Positions 4,406-63,039 of a stretch of DNA of 64,000 bases are shown here, piece by piece. Under the pieces are notes generated by a model, which saw only the letters and a list, made by a program, of their open reading frames with translations, was not told the origin of the DNA and searched no databases. Position 1 is the stretch's first letter, and every line of letters begins with the position of its first letter. A program made the position numbers and the translations under genes. This DNA is from a virus (taxonomy: Duplodnaviria > Heunggongvirae > Uroviricota > Caudoviricetes), in IMG/VR virus record IMGVR_UViG_3300029702_000002; one strand, written 5' to 3'.

Positions 4406-4466
4406 GTGTTTTTCTCTTATCGTTTAGTAACTACATTCTTACACAAATTAGGTAAGTATTTACCTA

Positions 4467-6152
4467 TCATTTAACGCGTTTGAAAACGTATACGCTGACT
4501 GTGATCCCTGTGTCTTCAAACTCGTTGGTAAACGACTTCCCTCTGGCATAAACGTAATTATCCATCGTCATCCAGTCCAGTATTGGCGCAGTGCCCGGCA
4601 ATACTGCTACAAGACGCCCGCCGACTTTCAGATGCCCCAGCGCAGCCAGCGTGTGCTCTCTATGACGACCAAGCGAATACGGCGGGTTCATAACGATTTT
4701 GTCGAACTGATAACCTACGTTGTCCTCAGACCACTTTATGAAGTCGCAGCAAATCGTGTTCGTATACCCTTTTCCACGCAGGATATCAGCGAAGAGAGGT
4801 GCGATTTCTATGCAGGTAACATCTTCCAGATCGGCGTTAATATAGGCCAGAAGATCCCCACGTCCGGCTTGAGGCTCCAGCAGCTTCTCACCAGGCTTCA
4901 ATTCAGTGGCTCTGGCAACGTACTCAGCAATCAAGCGTGGGGTAGGGTAGAACTGGTGTGATTTTGTATCCGGTATTAAACCGGTAGCCACAATCGTATT
5001 TAGCGTATGGACGATGTCATACGGGAACTGCCAGTGCTTTTTCTCCTGCACGCCGCCAATGAAGCTCAGTGTGCGCTCAAGCTCTTCCACCTGCGACTTC
5101 TGGAGAGCTGAATCAGAGAAGTACCATACGCCTTTGTCTTTGCTCAATCGCCCGTCACGAAGCGCAGTGCGAACCGGCACGGAGATCGTCTTCTGGATTA
5201 ACCCGAACTGCTTTGGTGCCCGTGTTTTTGGCGCGGTGCGACATGGCGCGGGGATTGCAGCAGGCATACTGTAAGCCAGCACCTCATTCAACTTCCAGGC
5301 CACGTCAGGATGTATTTCAAAGTGAACGTTGCCGTTCTTGAACATCTTCACGCGCATCAGATTTCCATCGACGTTCATCCAGTCACCGGTCTGGCAGTCG
5401 TTTGCCCGATACGCAGCTGATAGCACCTCAGCAGTGCGGTTGATGGTAATAAATTCTTTGTGCGCGAAGAAATGAAGCAAGACACGCAGATCGTCGATAT
5501 AGTCCTCTTTGCGATAGTTCACACTAACGCTGTCCCGCCAGAAATCAGAAATGCAGTCAGCGATTATCAGACGTTCGCTGAAACCGTTTGTCTTATTTGT
5601 CTTGTGCGCAGGACTCAGCGCCTTAAACAAGCCATACACGCGCTCAGAGAGATATTTGTGCCTGTCATTCAGCAAATTAAGCATCGTGGGTATGACCGTT
5701 TCTGCTTTGAACTCCGGTACACCAACGAACTCTTTTACCTTCATCTGATAGCCGGTTCTGTCAGTTTTGATGACTTCCTGCTTACCCTCGATAAACTGCT
5801 CACGCCACTCGTCGCGACGGGAAGCTGGCATGATCAGCAGAACGTTAGTCATATCCGTGACCTTCCTCCAGTACTCGGCCCAAATATTCTGTTTCACCCA
5901 TTCCAGATCGACTTTATCCAGCCAAGCTCGATTCAAACGTGAGCGTTCTTCATCTGGTCGGTGGTTCAGTTGCAGCAGGCGATTAATCATGTTGTGGCGT
6001 TCGTCTCCATAAACGAAGTCGTGAACCTGATACATGAAGGCGATCTCCTTCTCGCACTCGGCCACAATTTCGTGGATGACGTTCATTTCCTGACGATAAT
6101 CGATAGCAGTGTTTGAGTTGGCATCGTCGATGATGGAAAGAGCTGTATTCAT
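4467..6152 (-). CDS. DNA N6-adenine methyltransferase with ~400-aa N-terminal domain of unknown function
   Basis: C-terminal LLEPQAGRGDL (SAM-binding motif I) and DKIVMNPPY (motif IV, NPPY) typical of amino-methyltransferases. Confidence 0.75.
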   Translation of the reverse strand: MNTALSIIDDANSNTAIDYRQEMNVIHEIVAECEKEIAFMYQVHDFVYGDERHNMINRLLQLNHRPDEERSRLNRAWLDKVDLEWVKQNIWAEYWRKVTDMTNVLLIMPASRRDEWREQFIEGKQEVIKTDRTGYQMKVKEFVGVPEFKAETVIPTMLNLLNDRHKYLSERVYGLFKALSPAHKTNKTNGFSERLIIADCISDFWRDSVSVNYRKEDYIDDLRVLLHFFAHKEFITINRTAEVLSAAYRANDCQTGDWMNVDGNLMRVKMFKNGNVHFEIHPDVAWKLNEVLAYSMPAAIPAPCRTAPKTRAPKQFGLIQKTISVPVRTALRDGRLSKDKGVWYFSDSALQKSQVEELERTLSFIGGVQEKKHWQFPYDIVHTLNTIVATGLIPDTKSHQFYPTPRLIAEYVARATELKPGEKLLEPQAGRGDLLAYINADLEDVTCIEIAPLFADILRGKGYTNTICCDFIKWSEDNVGYQFDKIVMNPPYSLGRHREHTLAALGHLKVGGRLVAVLPGTAPILDWMTMDNYVYARGKSFTNEFEDTGITVSVYVFKRVK

Positions 6153-6255
6153 AATTGCACCATTAAGAAAAGATTTGTTTAATGGTGCAATTATTTCAAA
6201 AATGAAAAGGTGCTAAATAGAAATTAACAGGCAATCCTTTAAATAAAGGTATTTG

Positions 6256-6927
6256 CTAATCATACTTTGAGGTATTTATAACCAGGATTTTGTTTGTATA
6301 AATCTTCTTAATATCCCATGTGACATTACCGGAATACCATTGACCGTTATATACTTGGTTTCCAGTTGCACCGGTCATAGTTACATAGACAGGTCTGTCG
6401 TAATCGGTTCGTCTATAGTTATAAACCCCAACCATAGCAGGCATTACCGCACACGGATACCCCACATCTATGGTAAATTGAGGGTCCGAAATAGTGATAA
6501 GTTTCGCATCAAGGGGCATCATCTCACCGTGATACACCATTGCGCCTGCGCTGTTATACATGGCAATGCCATAGCCAGAATGTGGTAACACCATATCAGA
6601 AAAAGCATAAACTGTTATTGTTCCGGGGCTACCATTTACCTGATGCAATCTGAGAGCATTGTATCCGTTACTATGCTCATGAATAAACATCATGTTCGCC
6701 TTATTACTGCTTTTTATGAAGAAAAAGCATGATTTGTTTGATGGGATTGATGTTTGAAAAACAGAACCTTTAGATGTAGACATTGTCCCTTTATTAATCA
6801 GATTTTGCGGAGTAAATTCTGGACTCATCCACAAACTTCCATCTGATTGAGTAATTGACATCCCGAACATAATTATCCCCAGTATGTGTATATGTAAGAA
6901 CCAAGCCCCGTATATAAATTTGACCAA
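6256..6927 (-). CDS. hypothetical protein (223 aa), possibly C-terminal part of a frameshifted gene
   Basis: ORF track; low-GC; overlaps upstream ORF 6873..7154 by 55 bp in another frame. Confidence 0.35.
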   Translation of the reverse strand: MVKFIYGAWFLHIHILGIIMFGMSITQSDGSLWMSPEFTPQNLINKGTMSTSKGSVFQTSIPSNKSCFFFIKSSNKANMMFIHEHSNGYNALRLHQVNGSPGTITVYAFSDMVLPHSGYGIAMYNSAGAMVYHGEMMPLDAKLITISDPQFTIDVGYPCAVMPAMVGVYNYRRTDYDRPVYVTMTGATGNQVYNGQWYSGNVTWDIKKIYTNKILVINTSKYD

Positions 6928-7154
6928 CTAACCGTATTTCCATTAATAGTAACTGTTGGAACAGGTAAATTAATGTAGTTGTCGTTGTTAAGAGGCATCA
7001 ATGACCACACGGCATGTAGCGATTTACCCGGTGGCGGATTGGAGTACGTCTTAGAGCCTGATGACGCAGTAAATCGATCAAGAAAAAAAATAGGAGTAAG
7101 GAAGCCAGTAACGTTAATTCCTTTATTGTTGTAAATCCCTGTACCGTATGCCAT
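6873..7154 (-). CDS. hypothetical protein (93 aa), possibly N-terminal part of a frameshifted gene
   Basis: ORF track; Gly/Asn/Thr-rich beta-type composition; same strand and contiguous with 6256..6927. Confidence 0.35.
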   Translation of the reverse strand: MAYGTGIYNNKGINVTGFLTPIFFLDRFTASSGSKTYSNPPPGKSLHAVWSLMPLNNDNYINLPVPTVTINGNTVSWSNLYTGLGSYIYTYWG

Positions 7155-7209
7155 TTTTCATCCTTGTTTTTTATCAACACAATATGGCCGATCATGCGGC
7201 CATATCAGA

Positions 7210-61634: not shown

Positions 61635-61806
61635 TCACCACTTCCACTGTGCTTTGAAGTCGTTTTCTGTCTTCCTGTTTTGCCTTCTCTTCCATTGCTC
61701 GTCGCGCCGCATTCCCGCCCATCGTGTAAGCGCCGACAAGAACGAAAAGAACGGCAGCCAGCGTAATCAAAGCAACTTTTAGCTTTGTCATCAGGCTGCC
61801 TAGCAT
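61555..61806 (-). CDS. i-spanin (Rz-like)
   Basis: N-terminal transmembrane helix then charged coiled-coil region; lysis cassette context. Confidence 0.55.
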   Translation of the reverse strand: MLGSLMTKLKVALITLAAVLFVLVGAYTMGGNAARRAMEEKAKQEDRKRLQSTVEVVNETSNKIRQKDASAVHRELYDKWVRH

Positions 61807-61807
61807 A

Positions 61808-62527
61808 TTAGACCATCCCTTTCTGGTATTTTCTTACCTGCGACCAGGCAATGAATCCTGCCACAACAATAGTGGCAATACCGAAGATGATGCGTACTGT
61901 ATCCCCGCTAGAGATATGACCTTGTGCTTTATCCATAGCAGCGGAAACCTGCGGCATAACATCGGCCAGCTGCGCCAGACCAATACCTGCTGTAACAGTT
62001 GCGCCTGCAGTTTCTTTAGTTACAGGAACAGCCTTCACGGTTTTCACCGGCTTAACAACGCCAGCTCGACGCAGACCTTCCTCAATAACTTCTGCCGCAT
62101 ACCAGGTGTTCAGCGTTTTTAGCGGGCCTCGGCCATTCTCGTGGCGAATGATTGCCTCAACCAAAGGTCGAAGGATGTCGTAATCATGCAGATCGATGAT
62201 CATGTCTGCGGTTACACCAACGGCTTTAGACACCTCATTAATGTAGGCGTCAGTATTGTTTTCATTCGGCGGTGCCCAGCGTTCAATAACTTCACGAATG
62301 GTATCGATACTTGTGCCGTCTTTTGCGCGACGTTTATCGTGGTAGGTAATTAGAGTCACCGCCAGCGCACGAATCCCCCAAACAGGGTCTTTAAACGTGC
62401 AAAAGCGCGGTTCGTCTGGATTCGCAACCAGACCTTGCCACGGTGATCCTTTATCAAGATTACCGGGGTTATTATTACGAATGCCTCTCGGAGTCTTCAT
62501 CCTTGATCTCCTGTTATTGCAGTCCAC
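61808..62527 (-). CDS. putative endolysin / peptidoglycan-targeting protein with C-terminal hydrophobic segment
   Basis: Position between holin-like and spanin genes; C-terminal hydrophobic helix; family not recognised. Confidence 0.4.
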   Translation of the reverse strand: MDCNNRRSRMKTPRGIRNNNPGNLDKGSPWQGLVANPDEPRFCTFKDPVWGIRALAVTLITYHDKRRAKDGTSIDTIREVIERWAPPNENNTDAYINEVSKAVGVTADMIIDLHDYDILRPLVEAIIRHENGRGPLKTLNTWYAAEVIEEGLRRAGVVKPVKTVKAVPVTKETAGATVTAGIGLAQLADVMPQVSAAMDKAQGHISSGDTVRIIFGIATIVVAGFIAWSQVRKYQKGMV

Positions 62528-62849
62528 TTTTTACGCCATACGCGGCTAACCCCAAAAGCAGTGCGGTAATAATGAACGACGTTATTTTAGAAACAATGCC
62601 GCCAAAGAACCCACTTGAGATGGAATCTAACCGGTTAAGGAGTTTGTCCAGATTGGAGTGTTGAATACTATGTTGCGCCGGGGTCATATCACCAAAGTAG
62701 GTTTTCAGCTGATCATTGACCTCCTGGCCAATTTCTTCACGTAGCTCTTTACCTAATTTGCCAACAACCTCCCGAGCAACGATCGCGGCAATACGCTCAA
62801 CTTGCTCTGTTGTAACGCCCGCCATCTCGTTCGACATGTTTTCCTCCAT
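62514..62849 (-). CDS. holin-like membrane protein
   Basis: C-terminal transmembrane helix; first gene of lysis cassette. Confidence 0.35.
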   Translation of the reverse strand: MEENMSNEMAGVTTEQVERIAAIVAREVVGKLGKELREEIGQEVNDQLKTYFGDMTPAQHSIQHSNLDKLLNRLDSISSGFFGGIVSKITSFIITALLLGLAAYGVKSGLQ

Positions 62850-63039
62850 GAAAAGTCAAATCGGGATGGCGGATTTATATCACACTTCTCCTTTCAATTA
62901 TAGGTATATACTTACCTATCTATGCATATGCCGTTTAACGGCTGTTCAAATTCGTATCTAGTAACTCACTAATATATCCCTATGATTGCGGCTGTGAGAT
63001 CGCATTTTAAACCTCACAGCCATATAAATAATGTCTAAA

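Follow-up and report, generated by a model that had tools for sequence, protein, structure and literature searches.

The 64-kb window, that is, the whole stretch of DNA analyzed here, is part of the E. coli plasmid pRHB14-C22_3, an SSU5/pHCM2-like phage-plasmid with a 109-kb genome, and 14.9% of it is non-coding. The relatives compared were SSU5, a Klebsiella element, Yersinia pestis pMT1, and two syntenic Acinetobacter baumannii phage-plasmids. The window holds many copies of a palindrome (dyad), which are given below with their scores against a position weight matrix (PWM); all promoters and -10/-35 elements mentioned here are consensus predictions.

4447..4468, dyad of 26.0 bits overlapping the DUF4942 methylase stop codon, with the ATG at 4405 lying 41 nt downstream; followed on the minus strand, after 3 nt, by a conserved predicted extended -10, TGTAAGAAT (4443-4435)
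9426..9447, dyad of 24.8 bits overlapping the rnhA stop codon; next minus-strand gene 128 nt downstream
10602..10623, weak dyad of 15.7 bits with one good arm, 1 nt past the stop of the gene at 10625-10852
11642..11663, dyad of 27.7 bits, 10 nt upstream of the dam ATG
16481..16502, dyad of 21.9 bits, 14 nt upstream of the annotated thymidylate synthase start
16614..16635, weak dyad-like site of 15.1 bits, 1 nt past the stop codon of the MazG-like gene
21194..21215, dyad of 27.4 bits, 7 nt past a stop codon; 5 nt further on along the minus strand come a conserved T-tailed GC hairpin (21188-21167) and then the nrdA ATG
25893..25914, dyad of 26.3 bits upstream of sbcD; -10-like TATATT 7 nt downstream
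29400..29421, dyad of 23.0 bits, intergenic
31353..31374, dyad of 23.2 bits after a terminator (31409-31389, minus strand), overlapping a predicted promoter, TTGAAA-17-TATTAT; ATG 31 nt downstream
34873..34894, dyad of 23.5 bits preceding the gp32-like SSB gene
41616..41637, degenerate dyad whose upstream arm is good, separating the cobT-like gene from the AAA ATPase gene; -10-like TATATT 7 nt downstream
42947..42968, intragenic dyad of 16.6 bits within the cobT-like gene
47138..47159, dyad of 24.5 bits, intergenic, between grxA and the divergently transcribed gene at 47244
49532..49553, dyad of 28.1 bits, 9 nt past a stop codon; followed on the minus strand by the -10-like TATAAGAT and a conserved leader up to the tRNA-Asn/Thr/Ser cluster (48331-48783)
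52014..52035, half-site of 17.5 bits with one consensus arm, ACTTACCTATC
52885..52906, dyad of 21.5 bits, ATG 40 nt downstream; followed by a conserved -10-like GTAAGAAT, whose counterpart in SSU5 and Cyrano is TGTAAGAAT
58152..58173, dyad of 24.7 bits before the helicase/primase operon, the ATG of whose first gene is 11 nt downstream
62899..62920, dyad of 26.2 bits upstream of the holin/lysis genes; conserved predicted extended -10, TGATATAAA, ~17 nt downstream

A further copy lies in a region with the following features:

43861..44073, minus strand, 70-aa gene (phrog_2627, equal to CYRAN_46), divergent from the repressor gene in a cro-like position
44251..44278, plus strand, predicted sigma-70 promoter, TTTACA-16-TAATAT, serving the repressor gene and conserved in the relatives from Klebsiella and Yersinia
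44276..44297, inner-core dyad CGGTAAGCACTTACC directly after the repressor -10, a putative autoregulatory operator
44325..44711, plus strand, 128-aa XRE-type HTH protein, identical to the CYRAN_45 "putative repressor", a candidate dyad-binding immunity repressor
44706..45809, minus strand, site-specific integrase adjoining the repressor gene, part of a ~4.4 kb module missing from lytic SSU5

The motif is a 22-bp dyad, RATARGTAAGT/ACTTACYTAY. It is even, 20-22 bp long, centered between T11 and A12 (GT/AC) with no central N, contrary to the consensus given in the original prediction, and has symmetric A/T flanks (aaaT...Attt); TA steps recur every 4 bp along a 20-bp stretch conserved throughout. 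Every one of the 16 positions first listed has a copy, whether full, partial, or half (16/16), those at 41616 and 44276 being degenerate and the one at 52014 little more than a half-site; that list had omitted 10602, 16481, the weak 16614, and the conserved intragenic cobT copy at 42947. Most sites do precede an operon start closely, with the start codon 9-230 nt downstream, but several lie within operons. Intergenic enrichment had been proposed as the deciding test of the motif, and it proved strong. With a symmetrized PWM, trained on the same sites that it scores, 23 matches of at least 10 bits were found in the window, 20 of them intergenic, and at 15 bits or more 19 of 20 were intergenic (binomial p = 3e-15), against 0.05 matches expected from whole-window shuffles and 0.005 from intergenic-only shuffles. 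Because of this training, the count of the half-site ATAGGTAAGT serves as an independent test of enrichment; with at most 1 mismatch it occurs 14 times, compared with 2.7 +/- 1.6 in shuffles. Over the whole plasmid, 27 of 31 strong matches are intergenic. About 8 further matches lie outside the window, the head/tail region included, and the total over the 109-kb genome is ~30 sites. A region of ~15 kb with small early-type genes is dyad-free, and many late-region dyads have a terminator-like hairpin 0-10 nt downstream.

The position of the dyad relative to the predicted -10 is variable: over the transcription start, over the -35, farther upstream, or without any promoter, as at the terL/portal junction, inside cobT, and inside the portal gene. 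At dam and the repressor gene it is downstream of the predicted -10. The dam copy is downstream of and overlaps a conserved predicted promoter, TTGCCA-17-TGnAAAAAT (11689-11661, minus strand), and therefore covers the predicted transcription start. The gap from dyad to -10 is 6-7 nt at the TGTAAGAAT promoters and ~17 nt at the holin promoter, it is 9 nt versus 13 nt in orthologs of the tRNA promoter, and at some Acinetobacter sites the -10 is embedded in the downstream arm. Other dyads occupy the gap from a stop codon to the following ribosome-binding site, the terL/portal case in four lineages, and therefore no promoter there can serve the next gene. Such variability is more in keeping with a repressor than with a fixed promoter class. 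Two options had originally been offered, the operator set of a dimeric regulator and a dedicated promoter class. The latter is not supported as a general explanation, given the lack of a fixed spacing to the -10, the discrepancy between orthologs (9 vs 13 nt), and the copies downstream of the -10; the former is supported by the independent arms, the islands conserved across genera, the element-linked consensus, and the copy over the predicted start site of the repressor gene.

SSU5, the Klebsiella relative, and Y. pestis pMT1 have dyads at orthologous positions, ~17 sites being kept in pMT1, and the copy within the cobT-like gene reaches 21-24 bits in all three. When 17 orthologous sites are compared among the E. 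coli element, SSU5, and the Klebsiella element, pairs of sites are 85-87% identical across the dyad but ~50% identical in the flanks. The two A. baumannii phage-plasmids have comparable networks, with the consensuses AATCAGTCAGTACTGACTGATT (35 sites) and TATTAGTAAGCGCTTACTAATA, and in both lineages 2-3 dyads cluster in the divergent repressor/small-gene region. Since related elements in one host species have two different consensuses, the binder is encoded by the element; the consensus varies with the element and not with the host. SSU5 is a lytic phage from which the ~4.4 kb repressor/small-gene/integrase module is absent, with the dyad sites retained. Each arm fits the consensus independently, without compensatory change: complementary arm positions number 468, compared with 470.9 +/- 7 from column shuffles, and 223 at the Acinetobacter sites, where 220 +/- 3.6 are expected, and the variable pair 5/18 is distributed as GC 15, AC 15, GT 12, and AT 13. 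The dyad is therefore a double-stranded DNA site for a dimer and not an RNA hairpin.

The inner dyad comes immediately after the -10 of the predicted HTH-gene promoter (TTTACA-16/17-TAATAT) in the elements from E. coli, Klebsiella, and Yersinia, and it covers the predicted transcription start of that gene, although the PWM score of this putative autoregulatory copy is only 5 bits. The 128-aa protein matches Pfam HTH_19 weakly by curated thresholds (19.7 bits, under the 30.2 cut-off) and has a better PHROG match (phrog_8, 1e-11); its Foldseek matches, obtained with a single-sequence model, have E > 0.04. The recognition-helix signature GYKN.N.LSLIK.G is kept in the three dyad-sharing lineages and is different in the two lineages whose dyad is another. 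According to published data, the divergent CYRAN_46 is strongly induced in macrophages.

Published RNA-seq of LF82 lysogens places CYRAN_45 at 96 against a background of 9.8 (PMC9928086, supplementary file 2), and units preceded by dyads are at background level (PMC9928086). Expression goes from 55 to 6 at the 58152 junction and from 31.5 (CYRAN_64) to 7.5 (CYRAN_65) at the sbcD dyad (25893) (PMC9928086), drops that are near the detection floor, with a second palindrome present at one junction. Where the helicase and ParB genes diverge, the ParB/late side, which is the one nearer the dyad, is off (5.0) and the opposite side on (46-114) (PMC9928086). The Cyrano ortholog of the gene behind the 52885 dyad leaks in lysogens (44 vs a background of 10), transcription is seen downstream of the 10602 dyad (CYRAN_81), and the CYRAN_34 promoter is dyad-bearing, yet active.

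We consider it somewhat probable that the dyad is the site of an immunity repressor encoded by the element itself, which would most probably be the 128-aa XRE-type HTH protein acting as a dimer, within a network of operators and roadblocks. Nevertheless, 20 bp conserved throughout with a TA every 4 bp is unusual for a lambda-type HTH dimer, the terminator-like hairpins 0-10 nt behind late-region dyads are not specifically predicted by such a repressor, and the intact dyads of repressor-less SSU5 fit a role in lytic growth equally well.

The dyad might alternatively represent a positive promoter element, at which an early lytic, phage-encoded activator dimer would recruit the host RNA polymerase to -35-less promoters in the manner of Lpa at the late promoters of phage P1, the copies at dam and the repressor gene being secondary, repressive uses of the same protein. 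We regard this as unlikely, though it would suit dyads unaccompanied by a consensus -35, the scarcity of sigma-70-like promoter matches in the window (57 vs ~97 expected), and the high-scoring sites kept by repressor-less lytic SSU5, and the ~15 kb dyad-free region of small early-type genes could encode the activator. Furthermore, the outer part of the downstream arm resembles a -10 (enterobacterial elements have TATCAT there, pDD520 has TAATAT/TATAAT), and in 6 of the 28 Acinetobacter sites it is replaced by TATACT, exclusively on the sense side; the dyad center would therefore fall near -19/-20, which is close to P1 late-promoter geometry. However, the conserved -10 ranges from upstream of the dyad to ~30 nt downstream, with orthologs 4 nt apart, and dyads between a stop codon and a Shine-Dalgarno sequence (terL/portal, four lineages) cannot give a usable start site. 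Several dyad promoters have an extended -10, with no need for an activator, and the activity of the dyad-bearing CYRAN_34 promoter in lysogens also speaks against one. No candidate activator was found, and the sigma-like gene of the Acinetobacter relatives has no homolog in the E. coli element.

More doubtful still is that the dyads are bound by one of two orphan ParB-family proteins heading the late operon, which, as a KorB/Noc-like clamp loading at dispersed palindromes, would regulate or organize the genome. Two ParB_N proteins are conserved in all lineages, SSU5 included, one of them aligns to Spo0J across the DNA-binding region, and every lineage has a dyad 16 nt ahead of its first ParB-like gene. 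Protein identity parallels the motif, with 87-88% among enterobacterial elements and 38% to Acinetobacter, and Noc has many dispersed sites. KorB is described as a ParB relative using dispersed palindromes, with 12 operators on RK2 (PMC11790492). In lysogens, however, the ParB-like genes are at background (5.0 and 9.5 vs 9.8) while the dyad-linked genes are silent, and their products therefore cannot be the plasmid-state silencer. Known parS/OB/NBS sites, at 13-16 bp, are shorter than the 22-bp dyad, a separate large palindrome in three copies is a better candidate target, and the dyad at the repressor promoter would be left unexplained.

A host transcription factor or nucleoid protein would account for one consensus common to elements of Escherichia, Salmonella, Klebsiella, and Yersinia, but is very improbable in view of the two consensuses of the A. 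baumannii phage-plasmids in the same host species; to our knowledge, no enterobacterial regulator has this dyad consensus. The location of the palindrome at gene 3' ends, often adjoining genuine T-tailed hairpins, could suggest an RNA or single-strand hairpin (a terminator, a processing/stability element, or a nut/RAT-like antiterminator site), a reading that is disfavored and hardly tenable: compensatory arm changes are missing in two independent site sets while the terminator hairpins beside the dyads do show them, the frequency of A-C mismatches is at chance level, the dyad has no T tail, and an Rfam search of the dyad gave no match.

The proposed immunity-repressor network is paralleled by the operator/stoperator network of Cluster A mycobacteriophages (L5 gp71, Bxb1, and TipsytheTRex repressors), where, as here, 20-35 genome-wide sites lie mostly in short intergenic gaps, a few are true promoter operators and many lie within operons, one is upstream of the repressor gene, the consensus diverges between related lineages along with the repressor, and some members are extrachromosomal prophages (PMC6550527, PMC9283540). 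The repressor-less lytic relative with retained sites is D29 in mycobacteriophages (PMC6550527) and SSU5 here. In contrast, stoperators are asymmetric 13-bp sites, monomer-bound and oriented with transcription, the 22-bp dyad implies a dimer, and the host is Gram-negative; no sequence relationship of the 128-aa XRE-type protein to mycobacteriophage repressors was detected. Lambda-type cI/Cro systems share a dyad-symmetric operator with independently conserved half-sites, an XRE/lambda-repressor-like HTH repressor, and a repressor and small gene in divergent arrangement with an operator at the repressor's own promoter. Their operators, however, are 14-18 bp long and clustered at two sites, whereas here ~30 dispersed copies of 22 bp are conserved at the center too, and the 128-aa repressor is without an S24 peptidase domain. 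In RK2, KorB/KorA also use palindromic operators at many plasmid promoters, at variable distance to the promoter, but KorB is a ParB-family CTPase clamp with 13-bp sites, and the present element keeps its ParB-like genes silent while it is a plasmid. P1 is likewise a plasmid prophage with antirepressor-type induction logic, whose single C1 repressor acts on many operators scattered over a ~90-100 kb genome, including those before dam, replication, and accessory operons. P1 operators are asymmetric 17-mers and C1 is unrelated. Furthermore, P1 late structural operons are not directly C1-repressed and need the activator Lpa, whereas the same dyad here also precedes head, tail, and lysis genes.

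The set of 22-bp sites appears to be undescribed, the principle being already known in other phages. In the plasmid (lysogenic) state, the repressor would sit on ~30 sites across the 109-kb genome, with the viral genes silent. A site overlapping a promoter would act as a classical operator, covering the start site at dam and at the gene of the repressor itself, and lying across the -35/spacer where extended -10 promoters serve the 4405, 52844, sbcD, and tRNA units. Within an operon or gene, as at the terL/portal junction, after the capsid gene, inside cobT, and inside the portal gene, it may obstruct elongating RNA polymerase as a roadblock, by analogy with mycobacteriophage stoperators. Replication, nucleotide-metabolism, structural, and lysis genes would in this way be silenced unit by unit, and the maintenance genes without dyads (repA, parA, the toxin-antitoxins, the repressor, and the integrase) would stay on.

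The half-site ATAGGTAAGT occurs 14 times when at most one mismatch is allowed, against 2.7 occurrences expected, and iterative refinement of a position weight matrix turned it into a 22-bp dyad, with arms RATARGTAAGT and ACTTACYTAY and symmetric A/T flanks. All 16 operon starts at which a palindrome was originally noted contain this motif or part of it; the central N of the consensus then proposed was lost on refinement, as the dyad has no central spacer. The motif is also enriched between genes relative to coding sequence, on which the original prediction depended: 19 of the 20 window matches of at least 15 bits are intergenic, with non-coding DNA at 14.9% (p = 3e-15), and dinucleotide shuffles of the window yield 0.05 such matches versus the 20 real ones. 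Five TA steps follow each other at 4-bp intervals along the dyad (ATAg GTAa GTAc TTAc CTAt). When viral contigs were searched for the perfect 18-mer, most of those retrieved were SSU5-like, and the rest were low-GC singletons, which chance could explain.

The window is identical to part of the circular E. coli plasmid pRHB14-C22_3 (CP057798.1, 108,954 bp). Its close relatives are phage Cyrano/pLF82 and PhiR41_1, with Salmonella phage SSU5 ~79-86% identical, and the element is therefore an SSU5/pHCM2-type phage-plasmid. Nearly all window genes lie on the - strand, and their content comprises replication, recombination and nucleotide metabolism (DnaE, RNR, SbcCD, ligase, primase, helicase) together with plasmid functions. 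The remainder of the plasmid, with its head and tail genes and a run of small genes, was assembled too, so that the motif could be scanned over the whole genome: 31 matches of at least 10 bits were found per 109 kb, 27 of them intergenic, and some lie among head, tail and lysis genes beyond the window (positions there are given in continued coordinates, those of the rest of the plasmid). The element has matches in more than 1,000 plasmid records, and SSU5-like phage-plasmids, with resistance genes among their cargo, occur frequently in Escherichia, Klebsiella, Salmonella and Yersinia. Synteny extends to two A. baumannii phage-plasmids, NZ_CP155459 and pDD520, in dnaE, cobST-like genes, ligase, primase/helicase, two ParB_N genes and the head and tail genes.

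Sites of the same consensus are found at orthologous gene junctions in SSU5 (~25), Klebsiella phage pJN2-26 (~25) and Y. pestis pMT1 (~17). Across 17 orthologous triplets the anchored ungapped identity is 85-87% within the dyad versus ~50% in the flanks on either side, and thus the sites are under purifying selection. The two arms do not compensate for each other: complementary arm positions number 468 versus 470.9 +/- 7.0 when columns are shuffled between sites, the variable pair 5/18 is GC in 15 cases, AC in 15, GT in 12 and AT in 13, and the independent Acinetobacter site set gives 223 complementary positions versus 220.1 +/- 3.6. Unlike the dyads, GC hairpins adjoining several of them do carry compensatory substitutions. 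Logo and arm-shuffle tests thus agree that the half-sites of a dyad-symmetric DNA site are conserved independently, and the lack of arm compensation shows the palindrome to be a pair of half-sites that a symmetric protein recognises in double-stranded DNA. An RNA hairpin (terminator, RNase III site or nut/RAT element) is rejected on the covariation tests in both site sets and on an Rfam search in which the dyads matched no family.

The main rival to repressor binding is that the dyad is an activator site or promoter element, comparable with the Lpa-dependent late promoters of P1, in which an inverted repeat is fixed at about -22 upstream of the -10 and no -35 is present. Several features speak for it: a -35 element is absent at the sites, the outer arms are -10-like, the sites are intact in SSU5, and sigma-70-type promoter matches are under-represented in the window (14, 23 and 20 found versus 31.4, 27.8 and 37.5 expected from shuffles; window 1-60000, both strands). 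Furthermore, a subset of dyads with an embedded -10 resembles the P1 geometry. Nevertheless, the geometry is variable: unlike in P1, the spacing from dyad to -10 changes from site to site, some dyads fall downstream of the -10, and there are sites within operons. Outside the dyad and its A/T flanks information content is low, with no fixed partner element, and a -10 scan by offset over the enterobacterial sites gave no sense-specific peak, the embedded TATCAT being about equal on the mirror side (19 vs 15). Hence the dedicated promoter class, offered originally as one of two readings, finds no fixed dyad/-10 geometry to rest on. Predicted -10 elements that are conserved overlap many of the dyads or lie directly beside them; for several dyads no promoter is plausible. 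At individual sites the -10 elements are kept in three genera, at differing positions; the sites are listed below together with one dyad that cannot serve a promoter.

dam site: conserved predicted promoter TTGCCA-17-TGnAAAAAT ending at the first bases of the dyad, which would thus cover about +1 to +20
4405 and 52844 units: conserved TGTAAGAAT-type -10 ~3-5 nt after the dyad (TG missing at 52885), so that the dyad would span roughly -40 to -19
tRNA unit: -10 at a constant distance from a conserved leader; dyad-to-(-10) gap of 9 nt in the E. coli element and SSU5, 13 nt in the Klebsiella element
Lysis genes: TGATATAAA ~17 nt downstream of the dyad
terL/portal junction (no promoter served): dyad overlapping the terL stop codon and separated from the portal ATG by 9-15 nt that contain the ribosome-binding site, in four lineages and with two consensus sequences

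The tRNA unit carries a tRNA-Ser(tga), tRNA-Thr(tgt) and tRNA-Asn(gtt) cluster (window 48331-48783, - strand), ~750 nt downstream of the 49532 dyad, the strongest, and its promoter; the leader between them is conserved in three genera.

In the Acinetobacter lineages TATACT or TATAAT often replaces the outer downstream arm, on the sense side only, and the operator would thus overlap the -10 element; the orientation asymmetry of the dyad is mild and confined to this Acinetobacter downstream arm. Conserved intragenic dyads lie inside cobT and near the portal 3' end, and another site away from promoters follows the capsid gene. Those at terL/portal, in cobT and in portal cannot serve any promoter, and neither can the copies in the late region and at nrdA. 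Overall, the spread of dyad positions fits repressor sites, not activator-dependent or factor-specific promoters. One arrangement is explained by none of the models: in the late region and at nrdA a stop codon, a dyad, a terminator-like hairpin and a ribosome-binding site recur in this order. The GC-rich T-tailed hairpins stand 0-10 nt downstream of dyads at nrdA (window 21167-21188) and at the late-gene sites 67120, 74039, 80544 and 84119 (continued coordinates), and their structure is conserved across genera through compensatory changes.

The site varies with the element and not with the host. The dyad word is AATCAGTCAGTACTGACTGATT in NZ_CP155459 (35 sites) and TATTAGTAAGCGCTTACTAATA in pDD520 (17 sites in 50 kb), and two consensus sequences within A. 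baumannii exclude a host factor as the binder, indicating that specificity evolves with the element. The element itself encodes one candidate repressor:

44325-44711, + strand: 128-aa XRE-type HTH protein; HTH_19 match sub-threshold, phrog_8 'transcriptional regulator' at 1e-11

A single-sequence AlphaFold model of this protein (pLDDT 75) gave no more than weak matches to lambda-repressor-like HTH proteins. It is identical to CYRAN_45 of phage Cyrano, annotated as 'putative repressor', and is adjoined by the integrase and by a divergent 70-aa gene; for the other small proteins around the immunity region, Pfam shows no DNA-binding domain. Its predicted promoter, TTTACA-16-TAATAT, is followed at once by an inner dyad, CGGTAAGCACTTACC, as is also the case in the Klebsiella element and pMT1, which places an inner dyad at the predicted start site of the HTH gene in three genera. 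In each of the Acinetobacter lineages the equivalent divergent region contains a group of two or three dyads. The E. coli, Yersinia and Klebsiella proteins, 56-65% identical overall and associated with the same dyad, share the helix signature GYKN.N.LSLIK.G, which is altered in the two Acinetobacter proteins. Three consensus variants thus match three recognition-helix variants, although in five lineages only, so that a joint divergence of dyad and putative repressor is suggested by these sequences, not proven. SSU5, used as a lytic phage, retains the dyads but lacks the whole repressor/small-gene/integrase module, and the loss of this immunity module would be the reason why it is lytic. The lytic D29 likewise retains its sites among the stoperator-bearing mycobacteriophages (PMC6550527).

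Published expression values are consistent with this assignment. RNA-seq values per Cyrano gene in LF82 lysogens were taken from supplementary file 2 of PMC9928086, with a background of 9.8. CYRAN_45 reaches 96 (10x background), the integrase 50 and the small divergent gene 20, and repA, parA and the toxin-antitoxin genes are expressed; virtually all dyad-preceded units are at background (PMC9928086). Expression drops from 55 to 6 across the junction orthologous to 58152 and from 31.5 to 7.5 across that orthologous to 25893 (PMC9928086), where no intrinsic terminator is predicted; the two drops are indirect evidence for a block to elongating polymerase by bound repressor. The divergent helicase/ParB region is on along its helicase side (46-114) and at the floor along the dyad-adjacent ParB/late side (5.0; PMC9928086). 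CYRAN_34, behind a dyad promoter of extended -10 type with a weaker centre, leaks at 44 (PMC9928086), suggesting that host polymerase can use that promoter without a lytic factor. A 511-nt gap without an annotated gene (window ~10100-10600) lies downstream of the weak dyad 10602; its Cyrano counterpart, with the tiny ORF CYRAN_81, is among the top-expressed lysogen regions (117 vs background 9.8), and the region may be a regulatory RNA.

It is possible that a ParB/KorB-like protein binds the dyads in lytic growth. However, this would leave unexplained both the lysogenic silence and the copy at the repressor promoter. Unlike what is expected of ParB, KorB or Noc sites, the two ParB_N genes are silent, at background, in lysogens (PMC9928086), which argues against their products as the silencer of the plasmid state. 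Moreover, a separate large palindrome in three copies is the likelier ParB target:

Window 10940-11030 and 58240-58330, plasmid ~89545-89640 (continued coordinates): larger palindrome
SSU5 ~33440, 78290 and 103250: the same palindrome

The positions of its three copies per genome are conserved, one being just upstream of terS. Its inner arms, CCTGCTTCCGTATATA and TATATACAGAAGCAGG, surround an AT-rich core whose sequence, AATAAGTTACTTATT, resembles a shortened dyad, and its outer arms are TCTGGGAG and CTCCCAGA. This palindrome may function as a centromere, in packaging or as an origin-like site, and the two ParB-like proteins may be what binds it. These are orphan ParB_N proteins whose genes, together with that of an ABC-type ATPase, come first in the late operon and precede the terminase genes (plasmid 91469-92817, continued coordinates); one has a GxxRxxA box and aligns to Spo0J. 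They are kept in every lineage, Acinetobacter included, and in lysogens they are silent.

Remaining candidates were rejected. A phage sigma factor is represented by weak Sigma70_r2-like genes in the Acinetobacter relatives, for which neither tblastn nor a profile search found a homologue in the E. coli element. These genes lie between the cobS-like gene and dnaE (28810-29475 in pDD520, where the annotation reads sigma-70 family factor, and L011 19397-20080); the enterobacterial elements lack them, the neighbour being reduced to a 55-aa Cys-rich remnant (window 40147-40311). An FljA-like 'transcriptional regulator' beyond the window was set aside, FljA being an RNA-binding flagellin repressor and this copy probably an accessory gene (moron). 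It is a full-length 'repressor of phase-1 flagellin' (PF03614, 278 bits; plasmid 95236-95760, continued coordinates) within the lysogen-expressed helicase operon, and may act on host flagellin expression. CYRAN_43, by far the top-expressed prophage gene in lysogens (7084), was dismissed as its equivalent slot in this plasmid holds unrelated cargo. That slot, beside the integrase (window 46060-46596), encodes an unannotated 178-aa protein and looks like a variable cargo or defence position.

Repressor binding, to return to it, shares with lambda/434/P22-type immunity repressors the dyad-symmetric double-stranded sites with independently conserved half-sites, and a predicted HTH repressor gene that is lysogen-expressed and has a putative operator at its own promoter. 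With mycobacteriophage stoperators it has in common tens of genome-wide sites, within operons and off promoters, conserved across lineages, and a consensus that diverges alongside the predicted repressor (five lineages). In contrast, stoperators are asymmetric 13-bp sites, bound by a monomer and oriented with transcription, and the present site is a 22-bp dyad; given this and an unrelated repressor, the system falls outside the stoperator family proper. We infer binding, repression and roadblocking by the candidate repressor, one small XRE dimer that would serve as promoter operator and elongation roadblock at ~30 sites. Tentatively, and with more doubt than confidence, we propose that SSU5/pHCM2/pMT1-type phage-plasmids and their Acinetobacter relatives are silenced by such a genome-wide 'dyad stoperator' network, with lineage-specific dyad variants defining immunity/incompatibility groups.

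In the non-subscription literature searched, nothing relevant was found on lytic-gene control of SSU5-like phage-plasmids, on SSU5/pHCM2 regulation or on the dyad sequence. P1 also relies on one repressor acting at many dispersed sites. The same holds for Cluster A mycobacteriophages (PMC9283540, PMC6550527). The dyad site set thus appears new, the principle being already known from both. With the operator consensus and the candidate repressor, lysogeny, induction and superinfection immunity would become directly accessible; immunity groups could be predicted from sequence through the dyad variants, and the dyad sites would provide ready-made repressible promoters. If true, a stoperator-like system, here one built on symmetric sites, would for the first time be known beyond actinobacteriophages, and the immunity/incompatibility groups of these clinically widespread elements would include Y. 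pestis pMT1 and S. Typhi pHCM2. The strategy of many dispersed repressor sites would then extend to another large group of plasmid-prophages.
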